Made by a program: the position numbers and the translations under genes. Positions 5,185 through 38,531 of a stretch of DNA of 41,923 nucleotides are shown here, piece by piece. Below the pieces are notes generated by a model. The model was not told the origin of the DNA. It ran no database searches and worked only from the letters and a program-made list of their open reading frames with translations. The DNA is taken from the IMG/VR virus record IMGVR_UViG_2630968543_000002, one strand, 5' to 3'. Source of the stretch: a virus (taxonomy: Duplodnaviria > Heunggongvirae > Uroviricota > Caudoviricetes). Numbering within the stretch: position 1 is the first letter of the stretch; each line of letters begins with the position of its first letter.

Positions 5185-5274
5185 TTACCTCGGCTTGTTA
5201 CCGTTGAGGTAATGGTTATGCGTATTTGGTTTGATGTCAATAGATATGAGTTAAAAAAATTACCCATAAGGTAA
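5185..5274. promoter_or_regulatory. Left operator/promoter region (OL-like): two perfect TTACC-N5-GGTAA palindromes (5198..5212, 5260..5274) plus a TTACC half-site at 5185..5189
   Basis: Direct reading; a minus-strand TTGACA -35 hexamer lies between the two sites (plus 5235..5240, as tgtcaa). Confidence 0.65.
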
Positions 5275-5331: not shown

Positions 5332-5916
5332 TTATTGTTTATTTTTTTCGTTCTGGTTGATGACAAATTCAATGTAACTTTCGATCTTTGCTTTCTCGGT
5401 TTCGGGTAACAATGCGTAGCGCGAGCGGTCATAGTTGATGGTCGCAGGGTCGTGCGGGTGAATCAGTAATTCATAGCCGTGACGCCCGAATGCGGATGCA
5501 ACATTCTCCAGGGTGGAAATGGAAACGCTGACCTCATTGTTTAACAGGCGGCTGATTGTTACCTGGGCGACGCCGGATGCGCGGTGAAGTTTTCCCTGTG
5601 TTGAAAGGTCGCGGCTTTCGCTCATCCAGCGTTCCAGGTTGTGAGCCGCCAGCTGACCAATGTCGCTTGGGCCGACAGGCTGAAAACCTTCCTGAGAAAG
5701 CGAGCGATCGATATCAAGCCAGTTACGGGGTTTATTGGCGGCAGCTTCAATTTTTCGCGCAACCTGGTCGCCGATAACCTTCTTGCCAAGAGCCCAGCGG
5801 TTTACCAGATTTGCCTGAGTTCCAAGTTTTTCTGCCATCCGCGTCTGAACACCATTGAATTCACGGTCGATCAAGTCGTTGAGATTTTGCCTGCGGACGT
5901 CCTGGATACTTTTCAT
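5332..5916 (-). CDS. Prophage repressor with two tandem HTH domains (CI analogue); no S24 peptidase domain evident
   Basis: 194-aa ORF with two HTH-like segments (QTRMAEKLGTQANLVNRWALGKK and GVAQVTISRLLNNEVSVSISTLENVA); divergent from the Cro-like gene across an operator-rich spacer. Confidence 0.75.
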   Translation of the reverse strand: MKSIQDVRRQNLNDLIDREFNGVQTRMAEKLGTQANLVNRWALGKKVIGDQVARKIEAAANKPRNWLDIDRSLSQEGFQPVGPSDIGQLAAHNLERWMSESRDLSTQGKLHRASGVAQVTISRLLNNEVSVSISTLENVASAFGRHGYELLIHPHDPATINYDRSRYALLPETEKAKIESYIEFVINQNEKNKQ

Positions 5917-15653: not shown

Positions 15654-15730
15654 TGGCGCGGCATGCAGGATTCGAACCTGCGACCAACCGCTTAGAAGGC
15701 GGTTGCTCTGTCCAACTGAGCTAATGCCAC
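15654..15730 (-). tRNA. tRNA-Arg (anticodon UCU), phage-encoded, 77 nt with encoded CCA
   Basis: Manual fold: acceptor GUGGCAU/AUGCCGC, D-arm GCUC-AGUUGGACA-GAGC, anticodon stem ACCGC/GCGGU with loop CUUCUAA, T-arm GCAGG-UUCGAAU-CCUGC; close to, but distinct from, E. coli argU as recalled. Confidence 0.85.
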
Positions 15731-32370: not shown

Positions 32371-32391
32371 AAAAAAGCCCGCGGCGCGGGC
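32371..32391 (-). terminator. Rho-independent terminator for the minus-strand two-gene operon
   Basis: GCCCGC-GGC-GCGGGC hairpin followed on the minus strand by six U (plus A-run 32371..32376). Confidence 0.6.
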
Positions 32392-32831
32392 TATTCTTCT
32401 TCATCATAAAAAAGCGGATTGTCGTTTCCATCTGATGAAAGGAAAGGTATGTGTTCTCTTGAAAATCCAACAACGACAATTTCATTATCATTTTTTGCAT
32501 AATGAATGCATTCATTAGAATGCATTCCGCCGGGGTTGAAATTTAAGTTAATGGTATAATTCTTAAATGTGTTTGGATACCATGTTGGCCCACAATGATA
32601 ATGCCAATAATTCTCTTGCTCATAATTGTCTGAGCCGGGAATTTTATCATGGTTATCATCAACCCACGATGGCTTGTTTTTTCCAACAAGCGCCCTTCCA
32701 TTGGCAACATCTTCTAAAAACCTTTGTATGATTTTTATTTCATCGTCAGTAAGGAAAGGTCCGTCTACAGCGAAAGGGGTGTTGCTTTCCCCATTTAGAA
32801 AACTATTAGATATTCTAATGTTAAACTTCAA
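32391..32831 (-). CDS. Hypothetical protein (146 aa), acidic C-terminus, no recognisable domain; second gene of the accessory operon
   Basis: TTG start with AGGAG 6 nt upstream, 20 nt after the stop of the small upstream gene. Confidence 0.5.
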   Translation of the reverse strand: MKFNIRISNSFLNGESNTPFAVDGPFLTDDEIKIIQRFLEDVANGRALVGKNKPSWVDDNHDKIPGSDNYEQENYWHYHCGPTWYPNTFKNYTINLNFNPGGMHSNECIHYAKNDNEIVVVGFSREHIPFLSSDGNDNPLFYDEEE

Positions 32832-32851
32832 GACAAACTCCTAATGTGCTT

Positions 32852-33019
32852 CTATTTGGAGCGAAATGCCGCCTTGAAGTCGCTGAAAGATGTTCCTGTC
32901 TGGTAAACCATATCCTTGTCGCGCTCTTTGCTTGCGCGGCCAAGCATAACTTTTCCAATGACATCCCAGCATTGCTTGGCTTGTTCATTGTGCTGAGTAC
33001 GATTTTTCAACGCTGTCAT
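32852..33019 (-). CDS. Small hypothetical protein (55 aa); first gene of the accessory operon; not in the ORF track
   Basis: Hand translation MTALKNRTQHNEQAKQCWDVIGKVMLGRASKERDKDMVYQTGTSFSDFKAAFRSK; GGAGG 6 nt upstream. Confidence 0.5.
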   Translation of the reverse strand: MTALKNRTQHNEQAKQCWDVIGKVMLGRASKERDKDMVYQTGTSFSDFKAAFRSK

Positions 33020-33031
33020 ATCGCGCCTCCT

Positions 33032-33075
33032 TTACCTTTAAGGTAATAGTACGCTATTCACCCCCAGTCTGCAAT
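33032..33075 (-). promoter_or_regulatory. Sigma70-like promoter (-35 TTGCAG, 17-bp spacer, -10 TACTAT) with a perfect operator TTACC-TTAAA-GGTAA (33032..33046) overlapping the -10/+1
   Basis: Direct reading of the minus strand. Confidence 0.6.
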
Positions 33076-33812: not shown

Positions 33813-33966
33813 GGCGATCACCTTTGTAGTTAGGTTAATCACCACCGCTGAGACCAATCAGATGGTGGTGAACTGTGCAGAGTTGGTCTTACCGGCTACA
33901 AAGGAACCCGGCGCACCTTTCGGTGCCCCCACACAGCCCACCATAGAATAGGTGCGCTTTACACAT

Positions 33967-34080
33967 AAAAAAACCGCTTATGCGGCATATGTGCCTCTGT
34001 AGTAATCCGGGAGACCAATCCCGGCACTGGATTTTGCCAGTGCCCGATTACTATGGCACAAGAGGAGTGCGATGTAAATT
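33967..34080 (-). ncRNA. Candidate structured leader or small RNA upstream of the Bro-N gene (tentative)
   Basis: Minus-strand promoter (-35 TTGATT, 17-bp spacer, -10 TATCAT) abutting the operator at 34080..34094; two stable hairpins (34007..34024 and 34024..34043) and a short GC stem followed by seven U (33967..33985). Confidence 0.25.
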
Positions 34081-34094
34081 TACCGAAAAGGTAA
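34080..34094. promoter_or_regulatory. Perfect operator palindrome TTACC-GAAAA-GGTAA
   Basis: Direct reading. Confidence 0.55.
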
Positions 34095-34172
34095 TGATAA
34101 GCGCGAAAAAACATTAAAATCAACCGTATTTGGTTGATTGCGTTTAACGCTTGATCACCTGAAAGCAAGATA

Positions 34173-34187
34173 TTACCTTTAAGGTAA
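34173..34187. promoter_or_regulatory. Perfect operator palindrome ATTACC-TTTAA-GGTAAT preceded by AGATAT (-10-like), 21 nt upstream of the 34208 start codon
   Basis: Direct reading; core 15-mer identical to the site at 33032. Confidence 0.55.
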
Positions 34188-34207
34188 TGTTATTGTGAGG
34201 AAAAGCA

Positions 34208-34936
34208 ATGGAAGTTTTCTGGATAGTTGTTGGTGTGGTTGCGGTGATTATTTACGTTATCAACCAGAACAAGACTAAGATCTCTGATCGTACGGTCGTT
34301 AATCAGAACAAAACGATAAAGACCGAAGATGGGGAGATAACGATTAATCGTACACAGGTGATAGAGCACACATCTACTCAGTTTCAAAAAACTGGAGGTA
34401 ACGCTCCTGATATTTCCGTACCTCCTGCTTATGATAGTGCGGTAATCCAGACATATTATAAACAGCAGGAGTTAGCAAAAGAGAGGCAACTGATTCAGCC
34501 AAAGCCGTTTACAGCTGAGCTTCCACCTGGAGTGTCAACGCGTCCGGCATATCATGGAAGATTCCCTGGTGATGACATATCGTCTCAGTCATTTAAAAAA
34601 GCACCTCAGGCAGTATCAGAGCCAGCAAGAATATCTTCTGTATCGCCGCCAAAAGAAGAATCAGCTAACAGAGTTTCAAGCGGTAGCAAGCAGTGCTTGC
34701 GATGCAGAATAAACCTTCCATATGAAAAATTCAGGAAATCGTCAAAAAATCCGGATGGATTGACTAAGTGGTGTGCAAGGTGTCTCGATGGCCCAAAGAA
34801 TACACGTCATATGAAGTGGTGCCCAATTTGTAATGTCCGCAGAAAACGAACCAGCTTTTACCCTAATAATCAAAATGCGGACGGCTTAATGGCATGGTGC
34901 AAAACGTGCTGGGACGAGCACAAAGCGAAACGATAG
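34208..34936 (+). CDS. Membrane-anchored protein with two C-terminal zinc-ribbon-like repeats (unknown function)
   Basis: N-terminal hydrophobic helix (EVFWIVVGVVAVIIYVI); two repeats of C-x2-C-x16-17-DGL-x3-WC-x2-C; GAGG Shine-Dalgarno. Confidence 0.65.
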   Translation: MEVFWIVVGVVAVIIYVINQNKTKISDRTVVNQNKTIKTEDGEITINRTQVIEHTSTQFQKTGGNAPDISVPPAYDSAVIQTYYKQQELAKERQLIQPKPFTAELPPGVSTRPAYHGRFPGDDISSQSFKKAPQAVSEPARISSVSPPKEESANRVSSGSKQCLRCRINLPYEKFRKSSKNPDGLTKWCARCLDGPKNTRHMKWCPICNVRRKRTSFYPNNQNADGLMAWCKTCWDEHKAKR

Positions 34937-34952
34937 GCCGCTCTTGCGGCCT
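34937..34952. terminator. Hairpin between convergent genes (possible bidirectional terminator)
   Basis: GGCCGC-TCTT-GCGGCC followed by TTTAAATTT. Confidence 0.45.
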
Positions 34953-34958
34953 TTAAAT

Positions 34959-35216
34959 TTACCTGGTTTGTTTTCGTAATTGTTCGGCACAATAGTCGAG
35001 ATGTGTTTGCAGATCCTGCATAGACATCTGTGAGCTGGTGACGTAGTTAATCAGTGCAGTCAGTTCGGCAAGTGGGCCATCGACATTAAATCCATCCTTA
35101 TTGAGATCCCGGAGTAATTTCATCAAGTGCGATCCCTCCACCAGTGACCTGACGCCTCCCGGCGTGTGAATCCTTTCGGTAAATCCGTCTTCCAGTGGAT
35201 AGTGATACTGCTGCAT
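34959..35216 (-). CDS. Hypothetical protein (85 aa), paralogue of the C-terminal domain of the Bro-N protein
   Basis: ATG at 35216 with GGAG upstream; TERIHTPGGVRSLVEGSHLMKLLRDLNKDGFNVDGPLAELT aligns with RSLIHSPSGVLGLTENSLLMNLLNQLQEDGHDVSGAAAELT. Confidence 0.55.
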   Translation of the reverse strand: MQQYHYPLEDGFTERIHTPGGVRSLVEGSHLMKLLRDLNKDGFNVDGPLAELTALINYVTSSQMSMQDLQTHLDYCAEQLRKQTR

Positions 35217-35292
35217 CTTATCTTCTCCATGCAATAACTGTATATTTATACAGTAGCAAATAATTTGTTTGCTATCCAGCACGTTTTGCAAA

Positions 35293-35307
35293 TTACCTGA
35301 AAGGTAA
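35293..35307. promoter_or_regulatory. Perfect operator palindrome ATTACC-TGAAA-GGTAAT between divergent gene 34959..35216 and the tailspike; TATGTGGTT motif and a GGTAAT half-site follow at 35339..35358
   Basis: Direct reading. Confidence 0.55.
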
Positions 35308-35411: not shown

Positions 35412-38400
35412 ATGACGGTCTCAACCGAAGTTGACCACAACGAATACACAGGTAACGGCGTTACGACATCGTTTCCGTATACTTTTCGAATTTTCAGAAA
35501 ATCCGACCTGGTTGTTCAGGTGTCTGACCTGAACGGGAACGTAACAGAATTGGTTCTGGATACCGGTTATACGGTAACTGGGGCGGGCACTTATAGTGGC
35601 GGTTCTGTGGTTCTTCCGTCGCCGCTTGCTACTGGATGGAGAATTACGATAGATCGTGTGCTTGATGTAGTGCAGGAGACAGACCTTCGCAATCAGGGAA
35701 AGTTTTTCCCCGAAGTGCATGAAGATGCCTTTGACTACCTGACGATGCTGATCCAGCAATGTTTTGGATGGTTCAGACGTGCATTGATGAAACCATCTTT
35801 GCTTGCAAAATATTACGATGCAAAGCAAAACAGAATTTCTAACCTTGCAGATCCATCACTTGAACAGGACGCTGTAAATAATCGCTCAATGCGTAATTAT
35901 GTCGATGCTGCAATCGCCGGGGTTGTTGGTGGTTTTGGTTGGTTTATTCAGTATGGTTCTGGGGCAGTATACCGAACGTTCCAGGATAAAATGCGTGATG
36001 CTATTAGCCCCAAAGATTTTGGAGCTGTTGGTGATGGTATAAATGACGATTCTACTGCAATAAGCGCGTGCCTTGAAGCCTCATCTCCAGGTTATAAAAT
36101 TGACGGATTAGGGCTTACTTTTAAAGTATCAACTCTTCCGGATGTCAGCCGATTTAAAAATGCTCGTTTTTTATTTGAGAGAATACCGGGTCAGCCTCTT
36201 TTTTATGCTTCTGAAGATTTTATCCAGGGAGAGTTATTTAAAATTACAGATACACCGTGGTACAACGCCTGGACGCAGGATAAAACGTTTGTATATGACA
36301 ATGTCATCTATGCGCCTTTTATGGCTGGAGACCGCCATGGTGTAAATAACCTCCATGTTGCATGGGTTCGCTCAGGAGATGACGGGAAGACCTGGACAAC
36401 GCCGGAATGGCTTACAGATTTACATGAAAACTATCCCACAGTTAACTATCACTGCATGAGTATGGGGGTTGTCAGAAATCGCCTTTTTGCTGTAATTGAG
36501 ACGCGGACCGTGAGCGGAAATAAACTGCAGGTTGCAGAGTTGTGGGATCGTCCAATGAGTCGCAGCCTTCGCGTTTATGGTGGTATAACGAAAGCAGCAA
36601 ATCAGCAAGTCGCTTATATTCGCATTACTGATCACGGATTATTTGCTGGTGATTTTGTCAACTTCTCAAACTCTGGTGTTACAGGTGTTACCGGGAATAT
36701 GACGGTGACTACTGTTATTGATAAAAATACTTTTACAGTTACGACGCAAAATACTCAGGTTGTGGATCAGAATAACGAGGGTAGATACTGGAGTTTTGGT
36801 ACATCATTTCACTCGTCACCATGGAGAAAAACCAGTCTTGGAACTATTCCTTCTTTTGTTGACGGAAGCACTCCTGTTACTGAGATTCACAGTTTTGCGA
36901 CGATTAGCGATAACAGTTTTGCTGTTGGCTACCATAATGGTGATATTGGTCCACGCGAGCTTGGGATACTCTATTTCTCTGATGCTTTCGGTTCTCCTGG
37001 TAGCTTTGTTCGCAGACGCATACCTGCAGAATATGAGGCGAATGCATCTGAGCCATGTGTAAAATATTATGATGGCATTCTGTATCTGACGACCAGGGGG
37101 ACATTAAGTACTCAACCCGGTAGTTCATTGCACAGAAGCTCTGATTTAGGTGCATCATGGAATTCTCTTCGCTTCCCAAATAATGTTCATCACTCAAACC
37201 TTCCTTTTGCCAAAGTTGGCGATGAGCTGATTATTTTTGGCAGTGAGCGCGCATTTGGTGAGTGGGAAGGAGGAGAACCTGATAACCGTTATGCAGGAAA
37301 TTATCCAAGAACATTTATGACCAGAGTTAACGTCAATGAGTGGAGTCTGGATAATGTAGAGTGGGTTAATGTTACTGATCAGATTTATCAGGGCGGAATA
37401 GTTAACTCTGCGGTTGGTGTTGGTTCAGTTTGTATCAAAGACAACTGGCTGTACTACATTTTCGGTGGGGAAGACTTTCTAAACCCATGGAGCATAGGGG
37501 ATAACAACAGAAAATATCCTTATGTTCACGATGGTCACCCGGCTGATTTGTATTGTTTCAGGGTGAAAATTAAACAGGAAGAATTTGTTTCAAGGGATTT
37601 TGTCTACGGAGCCACTCCTAACAGAACGCTTCCTACTTTTATGTCGACGTCCGGCGTGAGGACGGTTCCTGTACCCGTTGATTTCACAGATGATGTTGCC
37701 GTCCAGTCACTGACTGTCCATGCAGGTACATCAGGACAAGTTCGCGCGGAAGTCAAACTGGAGGGCAATTACGCCATTATTGCGAAGAAAGTACCGTCTG
37801 ATGATGTTACCGCTCAGAGATTAATCGTTAGCGGCGGTGAAACAACGTCTTCAGCAGATGGTGCAATGATAACGTTGCATGGTTCCGGAAGCAGTACTCC
37901 ACGTCGCGCGGTATATAACGCACTCGAACATCTTTTTGAGAACGGAGATGTTAAACCTTATCTTGATAATGTAAATGCTCTTGGTGGTCCGGGAAACAGG
38001 TTCTCGACAGTTTATCTTGGCTCCAATCCTGTGGTTACCAGTGACGGAACATTAAAGACAGAGCCGGTCTCTCCTGACGAAGCATTGCTGGATGCCTGGG
38101 GTGACGTCAGGTATATCGCTTATAAATGGCTGAACGCTGTCGCTATAAAGGGAGAAGAAGGGGCGAGGATACATCATGGTGTAATCGCGCAGCAACTTCG
38201 TGATGTTCTTATTTCTCACGGACTCATGGAAGAAGAAAGCACAACATGCCGCTATGCCTTTCTTTGCTATGACGATTATCCCGCAGTATATGATGACGTC
38301 ATTACTGGCCAAAGGGAAATTCCGCTGACTGATAATGACGGGAGCATCATTGTTGATGAGGATGATAATCCAGTGATGGTAATGGAAGACATCATTGAGC

Positions 38401-38531
38401 GCGTTGAAATAACGCCAGCAGGATCTAGATGGGGGGTCAGACCTGATCTCTTATTCTATATCGAGGCAGCATGGCAGCGCAGAGAAATGGATAAGATAAA
38501 AGAGCGGATTCAGTCTCTGGAAGAACGTTAA
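35412..38531 (+). CDS. Tailspike / receptor-binding protein with predicted beta-helix and C-terminal chaperone-like domain
   Basis: 1039-aa ORF; conserved N-terminal particle-binding region (TGNGVTTSFPYTFRIF), pectate-lyase-like start (ISPKDFGAVGDGINDDSTAI); GGAG Shine-Dalgarno. Confidence 0.8.
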   Translation: MTVSTEVDHNEYTGNGVTTSFPYTFRIFRKSDLVVQVSDLNGNVTELVLDTGYTVTGAGTYSGGSVVLPSPLATGWRITIDRVLDVVQETDLRNQGKFFPEVHEDAFDYLTMLIQQCFGWFRRALMKPSLLAKYYDAKQNRISNLADPSLEQDAVNNRSMRNYVDAAIAGVVGGFGWFIQYGSGAVYRTFQDKMRDAISPKDFGAVGDGINDDSTAISACLEASSPGYKIDGLGLTFKVSTLPDVSRFKNARFLFERIPGQPLFYASEDFIQGELFKITDTPWYNAWTQDKTFVYDNVIYAPFMAGDRHGVNNLHVAWVRSGDDGKTWTTPEWLTDLHENYPTVNYHCMSMGVVRNRLFAVIETRTVSGNKLQVAELWDRPMSRSLRVYGGITKAANQQVAYIRITDHGLFAGDFVNFSNSGVTGVTGNMTVTTVIDKNTFTVTTQNTQVVDQNNEGRYWSFGTSFHSSPWRKTSLGTIPSFVDGSTPVTEIHSFATISDNSFAVGYHNGDIGPRELGILYFSDAFGSPGSFVRRRIPAEYEANASEPCVKYYDGILYLTTRGTLSTQPGSSLHRSSDLGASWNSLRFPNNVHHSNLPFAKVGDELIIFGSERAFGEWEGGEPDNRYAGNYPRTFMTRVNVNEWSLDNVEWVNVTDQIYQGGIVNSAVGVGSVCIKDNWLYYIFGGEDFLNPWSIGDNNRKYPYVHDGHPADLYCFRVKIKQEEFVSRDFVYGATPNRTLPTFMSTSGVRTVPVPVDFTDDVAVQSLTVHAGTSGQVRAEVKLEGNYAIIAKKVPSDDVTAQRLIVSGGETTSSADGAMITLHGSGSSTPRRAVYNALEHLFENGDVKPYLDNVNALGGPGNRFSTVYLGSNPVVTSDGTLKTEPVSPDEALLDAWGDVRYIAYKWLNAVAIKGEEGARIHHGVIAQQLRDVLISHGLMEEESTTCRYAFLCYDDYPAVYDDVITGQREIPLTDNDGSIIVDEDDNPVMVMEDIIERVEITPAGSRWGVRPDLLFYIEAAWQRREMDKIKERIQSLEER

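Follow-up and report, generated by a model that had tools for sequence, protein, structure and literature searches.

The open reading frame (ORF) at positions 34208-34936 of the window, which is the whole stretch of 41,923 nucleotides of viral DNA analysed here, is a real and conserved gene for a bitopic inner-membrane protein. From the N-terminus to the C-terminus the protein consists of a 2-3 residue N-terminus, a transmembrane helix, a beta-hairpin, a flexible tether of ~100 residues and two Cys4 modules. The gene is predicted to be controlled by the immunity repressor of the phage, and interference with DNA at the inner membrane soon after infection or induction is the function that we tentatively favour. 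We regard it as a good but unproven candidate, well defined and easily testable, and not as a demonstrated new mechanism.

The window is the nearly complete genome of an epsilon15/phiV10-like (Uetakevirus-type) temperate podophage, whose closest deposited relatives are TL-2011b, EC.W1-9, ZX5 and phiV10. The tailspike encoded at 35412-38531 is a K1-type endosialidase (Pfam End_* domains), and the chromosome of E. coli VR50 matches the stretch with the 34208-34936 ORF at 100% identity. A tRNA gene also lies within the phage genome at 15657-15730 on the minus strand (Rfam tRNA, 69.4 bits). The features on which the following sections draw are collected in Table 1.

Table 1. Positions in the window of the gene, its control elements, its protein domains and its neighbours
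Feature	Position	Strand	Basis
Immunity repressor, 194 aa, HTH, no S24 domain	5332..5916	-	flanked by operator motif
Copies of the operator motif	start at 5198, 5260, 5972, 6020, 6357, 8303, 8365, 12845, 12863, 16053, 33032, 34080, 34173, 35293		
Bro-N antirepressor gene, directly downstream of isrK/C4	33120..33857	-	Pfam, PHROG
isrK-like and C4 antisense RNA elements, leader of the antirepressor operon	33861..34043	-	Rfam
Operator of the divergent isrK/C4/antirepressor operon	34080..34094	.	motif search
Sigma-70-type promoter TTGATC-17 nt-TACCTT (-35 TTGATC at 34151-34156, -10 TACCTT at 34174-34179)	34151..34179	+	read from sequence
Operator TTACCTTTAAGGTAA, perfect copy, spans the -10 hexamer and the predicted transcription start	34173..34187	.	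motif search
Ribosome-binding site GAGG, 7 nt before the ATG	34197..34200	+	read from sequence
Coding sequence, 242 aa, ATG start	34208..34936	+	ORF list; family phrog_6762 (no function annotated)
Transmembrane helix, residues 4-18 (FWIVVGVVAVIIYVI), predicted N-out/C-in anchor	34217..34261	+	hydropathy, AlphaFold2, flank charge
Conserved juxtamembrane beta-hairpin, residues 29-52	34292..34363	+	alignments; AlphaFold2 pLDDT ~75
Variable P/S/Q-rich linker, residues 61-160, low pLDDT	34388..34687	+	alignments, AlphaFold2
Zinc module 1 (C163, C166, C189, C192)	34694..34783	+	alignments, profile and structure matches
Zinc module 2 (C205, C208, C231, C234)	34820..34909	+	alignments, profile and structure matches
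Intrinsic terminator, end of the cassette	34935..34952	+	
Gene for an 85-aa protein, Ant C-terminal domain (phrog_450/15539)	34959..35216	-	PHROG; tail-to-tail with the 242-aa gene
Near-consensus LexA box TACTGTATAAATATACAGT, between the operator at 35293-35307 and the start of the 85-aa gene	35236..35254		

The gene encodes an inner-membrane protein with a basic C-terminal domain

The initial annotation, made from the sequence alone, had read this ORF as a 242-aa product with one N-terminal transmembrane helix and a duplicated, basic cysteine module at the C-terminus, and the analysis bore out each of these points. The ORF starts with ATG on the plus strand, and the profile of family phrog_6762 matched the product at full length (E = 6.6e-148), with residues 1-242 aligned to profile positions 1-242. 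Pseudogene status was considered and rejected: the TL-2011b copy is annotated merely as a misc_feature 'similar to hypothetical protein' (L001, 3826-4914), but the alignment showed an intact ORF of identical length without a frameshift.

Residues 4-18 are strongly hydrophobic, with a Kyte-Doolittle mean of 3.0 over these 15 residues and 2.33 over 19 residues, and the AlphaFold2 full-length model, built from a 30-sequence alignment, places a helix at residues 2-21 with a pLDDT of ~90. An N-terminal hydrophobic segment was present in 60/60 family members examined. The flank on the C-side of the helix was more positive than the 2-3 residue flank on the N-side in 56 of the 60 members, which points to an N-out/C-in topology for the family. 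Both the positive-inside rule and the fact that Cys4 sites must stay reduced argue for a cytoplasmic zinc domain, a placement that we infer with good support. A cleavable signal peptide and a periplasmic zinc domain were rejected on the grounds of the acidic N-terminus, the basic C-flank and the lack of an AxA site; the oxidising periplasm would also be an unlikely place for Cys4 sites.

Behind the hairpin, the region of low AlphaFold2 confidence extends over residues 54-158, and the linker ranges in length from 87 to 144 aa across the family. The C-terminal domain is again confident in the model (pLDDT >90). Its basic character is pronounced, as the last 82 residues contain 20 K+R versus 6 D+E, and it is a property of the family: the net charge of the zinc domain is +14 in the 242-aa protein and +14.2 +/- 2.0 over 60 members.

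The tandem zinc modules have a predicted Stc1-like fold

The four CxxC pairs of the duplicated module start at residues 163, 189, 205 and 231. Conservation was assessed in one alignment of 30 relatives (A2) and in another of 34 more distant ones (A4), which reaches down to ~26% identity. All eight cysteines (8/8) were invariant in these alignments, as were K161, D183, G184, W188, D225 and W230. The repeats had been described as zinc ribbons in the initial annotation. Their tandem Cys4 organization stood, but the fold had to be revised: in the AlphaFold2 model each half of the C-terminal domain consists of a few short strands and then a helix, which begins at the second CxxC, so that the modules are modelled as treble-clef or beta-beta-alpha-like (Stc1-like) and not as classical two-knuckle zinc ribbons.

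The sole Pfam match of the protein at E <= 1 was a weak one to Stc1 (PF12898; 21.2 bits, E = 4.4e-4, in two stretches), below the gathering cut-off of 24.8 bits, whereas multi-repeat relatives from the domain-profile search exceed this cut-off with 31.9-39.2 bits. The description of Stc1 as ~80 residues with eight conserved cysteines and two zinc-binding units fits residues 163-234. PHROG endonuclease VII, HNH and primase families matched the modules with E values from 4e-12 to 3e-3, and the nuclease families did so through their zinc-module region only. When the zinc-domain profile (A3) was searched against 1.84 billion representatives, 3035 proteins were found at E <= 1e-3. One group of matches consists of proteins of 150-240 aa with the anchor, hairpin, linker and double module (dozens of representatives), and a second group consists of soluble proteins with 4-12 tandem modules, as in P0034-P0046. 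Among the soluble relatives, the double module is also fused to HEAT repeats (P0073), an SF1 helicase (P0105), a J-domain (P0140) or a C-terminal endonuclease VII/HNH domain.

Structure comparison gave a similar picture. A domain-only model (pLDDT 87.7) compared by Foldseek with BFVD matched 36 viral proteins at E <= 1e-3, mainly HNH, endonuclease VII or 'Stc1 domain' proteins encoded by phages and giant viruses, and single modules superposed on these matches at 0.8-1.7 A over 38-40 residues. Among solved structures (PDB), neither sequence nor structure searches gave a confident match. The sequence-profile searches returned marginal matches alone (PacI, XPA and RING proteins), and Foldseek of the full-length model returned nothing significant; the floppy linker spoils a superposition of the whole model.

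The N-terminal Stc1-like modules of HNH/endonuclease VII proteins (PF12898; phrog_1035, phrog_2633 and phrog_2255) share with the phage protein the order CxxC, F, DG, (W)CxxC. In those proteins the module precedes a nuclease domain, whereas the 242-aa protein has a membrane anchor instead and no nuclease domain. A nuclease motif and a catalytic His/Asn are absent from it, the module alignments contain no invariant His, and Pfam yielded no nuclease-domain match; a nuclease function was rejected for the lack of a catalytic motif and of a nuclease domain. Because such modules are repeatedly paired with nucleic-acid enzymes and the high positive charge is conserved, nucleic-acid binding is the most economical reading of the zinc domain, and a plausible one. 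However, Stc1 of S. pombe is a protein-protein adaptor, and Stc1-type zinc modules can mediate protein-protein contacts (PMC2875855), therefore DNA binding is treated here as putative. The +14 charge could equally serve binding to anionic lipids.

The promoter overlaps a perfect copy of a dispersed operator motif

The initial annotation had also given the gene its own operator-linked promoter, which the present analysis recovered: the operator overlaps the -10 hexamer and stands 20 bp before the ATG, and the arrangement is kept in relatives with 45-63% protein identity. In all, the window contains 14 copies of TTACC-N5-GGTAA, versus 0.73 expected. The scatter of these copies resembles the dispersed C1 operators of P1, unlike the OL/OR pair of lambda. 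Copies 12845/12863 and 16053 lie at or inside genes of the morphogenesis region. At the repressor gene, two operators are found between it and a cro-like gene and two on the opposite side. The 194-aa repressor is 100% identical to the repressor of phiV10 and to ORF21 of ZX5, and overexpression of ORF21 shuts down lytic transcription, a global effect (PMC9782041).

In relatives with 45-63% identical proteins, the orthologues are likewise preceded by TTGAxx-16/17-TACCTT inside TTACC-TTnnn-GGTAA, and the operator is located 32-39 bp upstream of the ATG. This promoter-operator design is conserved in E. coli, Serratia, Pectobacterium and other lineages, while the remaining upstream sequence has diverged; in the Pectobacterium prophage the operator motif is also found in the immunity region. 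The -10 hexamer forms the left half of the operator, and the right half contains the predicted start site. With its -10 hexamer inside an operator of the immunity repressor, the gene should therefore be silent in a stable lysogen and switched on after infection or induction. We thus infer, again with good support, that the repressor occludes its promoter in the lysogen and that the gene is expressed once the repressor is missing or has been inactivated.

No LexA box was found at the promoter of the gene itself; the sole good box is that of the neighbouring small antirepressor gene. Between the divergent promoters, at 34118-34139, there is a perfect hairpin with an 8-bp stem (AATCAACC...GGTTGATT) followed by a T-run on the minus strand, which may be an insulator-type terminator or an extra protein-binding site.

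The gene is accessory cargo between two antirepressor units

The cassette is located in the anti-immunity region, between the C4/Bro-N antirepressor operon and the small antirepressor gene with the LexA box. On the divergent side, Rfam detected an isrK-like element at 34043-33967 (74.7 bits) and a C4 antisense RNA at 33948-33861 (78.6 bits). With its own operator, the isrK/C4/Bro-N operon resembles the antisense control unit immI of P1/P7, here in an epsilon15-like phage. Its leader has two candidate promoters, one alone of which adjoins the operator, and in the ZX5 annotation part of this leader is given as a coding sequence for an 'ash family protein'. On the other side, the 85-aa gene probably encodes an SOS-triggered small antirepressor (Tum-/Gifsy-like) directed at a repressor without an S24 cleavage domain.

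A further operator-controlled cassette occupies 32391-33046 on the minus strand, with an operator at 33032-33046 and a strong ribosome-binding site. It contains ORFs for 55 aa (33019-32852) and, from a TTG start, 146 aa (32831-32391, phrog_5954, no function annotated). The matching position in TL-2011b holds a small hypothetical protein and a YafO-family toxin, and the cassette may be a toxin-antitoxin-like pair.

In ZX5 (L009, 1340-1540) nothing occupies the slot that separates the antirepressor leader from the small antirepressor gene. In EC.W1-9 (L008, 1500-2600) it is filled by two unrelated ORFs of 139 and 168 aa, neither with a Pfam match, behind an operator-like TTTACCCTAGAGGTA. The antirepressor-flanked slot is a cargo hotspot. 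The 242-aa gene was found in 129/5426 complete E. coli genomes (2.4%); together with the polymorphism of the slot, this count identifies it as an accessory gene.

Members of the family are linked to immunity genes

The phrog_6762 family occurs across Gammaproteobacterial prophages. Neither NCBIfam nor Pfam has a model for it, none of the PADLOC-DB v2 families (0) matched the 242-aa protein at E <= 0.1, and no characterised member was found in the literature. The linkage of the family was surveyed at 39 loci drawn from genomes of isolates, phage records and IMG/VR contigs, and at 31 of them the homologue is linked to a cI or antirepressor gene. At 14/39 loci, corresponding to about six lineages after redundancy, it immediately follows a CI-type (HTH + S24) repressor gene in the same orientation, after a gap of ~15-55 bp; these lineages include Aeromonas phage phiARM81mr and prophages of Acinetobacter, Marinobacterium and Neptunomonas. 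It is convergent with cI at two further loci (2/39), one of which, in Oceanobacter (L096), has operator-like half-sites common to the homologue and the cI-cro region. A Bro-N, KilA-N, Rha or ANT-type antirepressor gene stands <=3 genes from the homologue at 15/39 loci, and neither kind of linkage was detected at 8/39 at phmmer sensitivity.

The linkage to immunity modules is strong, and it can reflect either a function in the lysis-lysogeny switch or the usual parking place of exclusion and defence cargo. Immunity regions are a usual site of unrelated accessory or defence genes, for example rexAB beside cI.

Candidate functions of the protein

A membrane-tethered nucleic-acid binder had appeared unusual in the initial annotation, but this plan has precedents in AbiP and PdpSau (PMC10127798) and in p16.7 of phi29 (PMC4974454). 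Phage accessory proteins that combine a membrane anchor with a nucleic-acid-binding domain follow a known plan; what is new is the version with zinc modules, its breadth and its linkage to immunity genes.

AbiP of Lactococcus and PdpSau of S. aureus prophages both act in abortive infection as membrane-anchored proteins that bind nucleic acid. PdpSau combines an N-terminal transmembrane helix with a positively charged cytoplasmic domain that binds DNA, and brings about abortive infection and membrane depolarisation (PMC10127798). Both share with the 242-aa protein, as predicted, one N-terminal transmembrane helix and a basic cytoplasmic C-terminal domain with presumed nucleic-acid binding, and both are likewise encoded by single accessory genes on mobile elements or prophages (PMC10127798 and its reference 50). 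No sequence relation between them and the 242-aa protein was found. Their cytoplasmic domain is OB-fold-like, whereas that of the 242-aa protein is predicted to be a tandem Cys4 zinc module, and they are expressed in the resident cell, whereas the 242-aa protein is predicted to be repressor-controlled.

By analogy with these proteins, we tentatively favour, at somewhat below even chances, an early-expressed interference with DNA at the inner membrane, of the exclusion or abortive type. The protein would be made in the first wave of derepressed genes, either on infection of a naive cell or on SOS inactivation of the repressor. Its basic zinc domain, non-specific and on a long tether, would bind nucleic acid on the cytoplasmic face of the membrane, and the protein would interfere with DNA arriving or handled there in the manner of AbiP and PdpSau. 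Its role would be to exclude superinfecting phages early in the lytic cycle or to act on competitors in an abortive-infection-like way, and for those distant relatives whose gene shares a transcript with cI this activity would be exerted in the lysogen.

A role in exclusion or defence would fit the genomic positions of the family, beside cI or beside ant. The distant homologues take the position of rexAB in lambda, downstream of cI, and the neighbourhood of the 242-aa gene is analogous to that of sieA beside ant in P22, where the order is ejection-protein gene, sieA, mnt/arc/ant and tailspike. The main internal tension lies in the expression pattern, since predicted repression in this lysogen and co-transcription with cI in distant relatives follow opposite logics and a single role must fit both. 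The broader proposal that the family is a new single-polypeptide exclusion or abortive factor, in which the tethered Stc1-like domain would recognise foreign DNA, whether incoming or replicating, and helix and hairpin would then block entry or collapse the membrane, is conceivable but rather doubtful.

The same architecture of N-terminal anchor, long tether and basic domain, with predicted early repressor-controlled expression, would also suit a tether for the DNA of the phage itself, which would recruit replicating or injected DNA or the host nucleoid to the membrane early or, in a variant, act as a host-takeover or division block. The precedent is phi29 p16.7, a DNA-binding membrane protein that draws DNA to the membrane and organises replication (PMC4974454). 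Like the plan proposed here, p16.7 is early and has an N-terminal membrane anchor and a C-terminal DNA-binding part, which is putative in the 242-aa protein. Its DNA-binding fold is unrelated to that of the 242-aa protein, and it belongs to a protein-primed replication system, whereas the 242-aa gene is an optional gene of the immunity region. We consider an own-DNA tether unlikely: the gene is dispensable and sporadic, being absent from close relatives with an identical repressor and confined to the small share of E. coli genomes given above, it is linked to immunity genes and not to replication genes, and the homologues co-transcribed with cI would be expressed without phage replication.

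The linkage to cI or antirepressor genes at 31/39 loci in unrelated phage types, and the position between two antirepressor units in the window, would accord with a modulator of the lysis-lysogeny switch, in which the zinc modules would be adaptors holding the repressor, the antirepressor or a host factor at the membrane. The adaptor function of S. pombe Stc1 (PMC2875855) offers a model for this, and the J-domain fusion of P0140 suggests that the double module can be a targeting domain. However, immunity regions commonly house unrelated cargo (rexAB by cI, sieA by immI in P22), the very high conserved positive charge suits a polyanion ligand better, and phages with the same repressor and antirepressor function without this gene (PMC9782041), all of which makes a switch modulator improbable.

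The initial annotation had put forward sensing or exclusion of incoming DNA at the membrane. In its classical form this would be superinfection exclusion by a protein made constitutively from the prophage in the lysogen, which would catch or block incoming DNA. Such a function can draw on the positional analogy with sieA of P22 (PMC10883804) and on the homologues in cI operons of Aeromonas, Acinetobacter, Marinobacterium and Neptunomonas prophages, and SieA is located in the inner membrane (PMC10883804), as is predicted for the 242-aa protein. Here and in the Enterobacterales relatives, however, a perfect repressor operator covers both the -10 hexamer and the predicted start, therefore lysogen-expressed exclusion is quite unlikely and early lytic expression would be expected. 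SieA and Rex are expressed from the prophage, whereas the 242-aa gene carries a repressor operator. SieA is also largely hydrophobic, with several hydrophobic stretches and no zinc domain, unlike the 242-aa protein. Homology to SieA was rejected for lack of sequence similarity, the best BLASTP match having E = 0.23 over 7 residues.

An anti-defence or host-takeover factor that would neutralise, for example, a host nuclease or restriction system is very unlikely: the match of phrog_5558 ('Lar-like restriction alleviation') to module 2 (E = 5e-8), the predicted early expression and the variable presence in close relatives typical of such cargo speak for it, but that match spans the generic zinc module only, Pfam matched no restriction-alleviation family, a membrane anchor is not expected on an inhibitor of cytoplasmic nucleases, and the homologues in cI operons argue against a purely lytic role.

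Implications for temperate phages

The gene adds to the dispersed-operator design of epsilon15/phiV10-like phages a case in which the -10 hexamer is built into the operator, an arrangement suited to reporter tests. The phrog_6762 family, absent from Pfam, NCBIfam and PADLOC models, resides in the part of temperate phage genomes that is usual for exclusion and defence genes. If the protein binds DNA at the membrane, the zinc-module version would join the small group of AbiP, PdpSau and p16.7, and a function would be provided for a module so far seen mainly as an appendage of homing-type nucleases. If the more doubtful proposal of a new single-polypeptide exclusion or abortive factor is true, current defence catalogues would be missing a factor that is widespread in the immunity regions of Gammaproteobacterial prophages.
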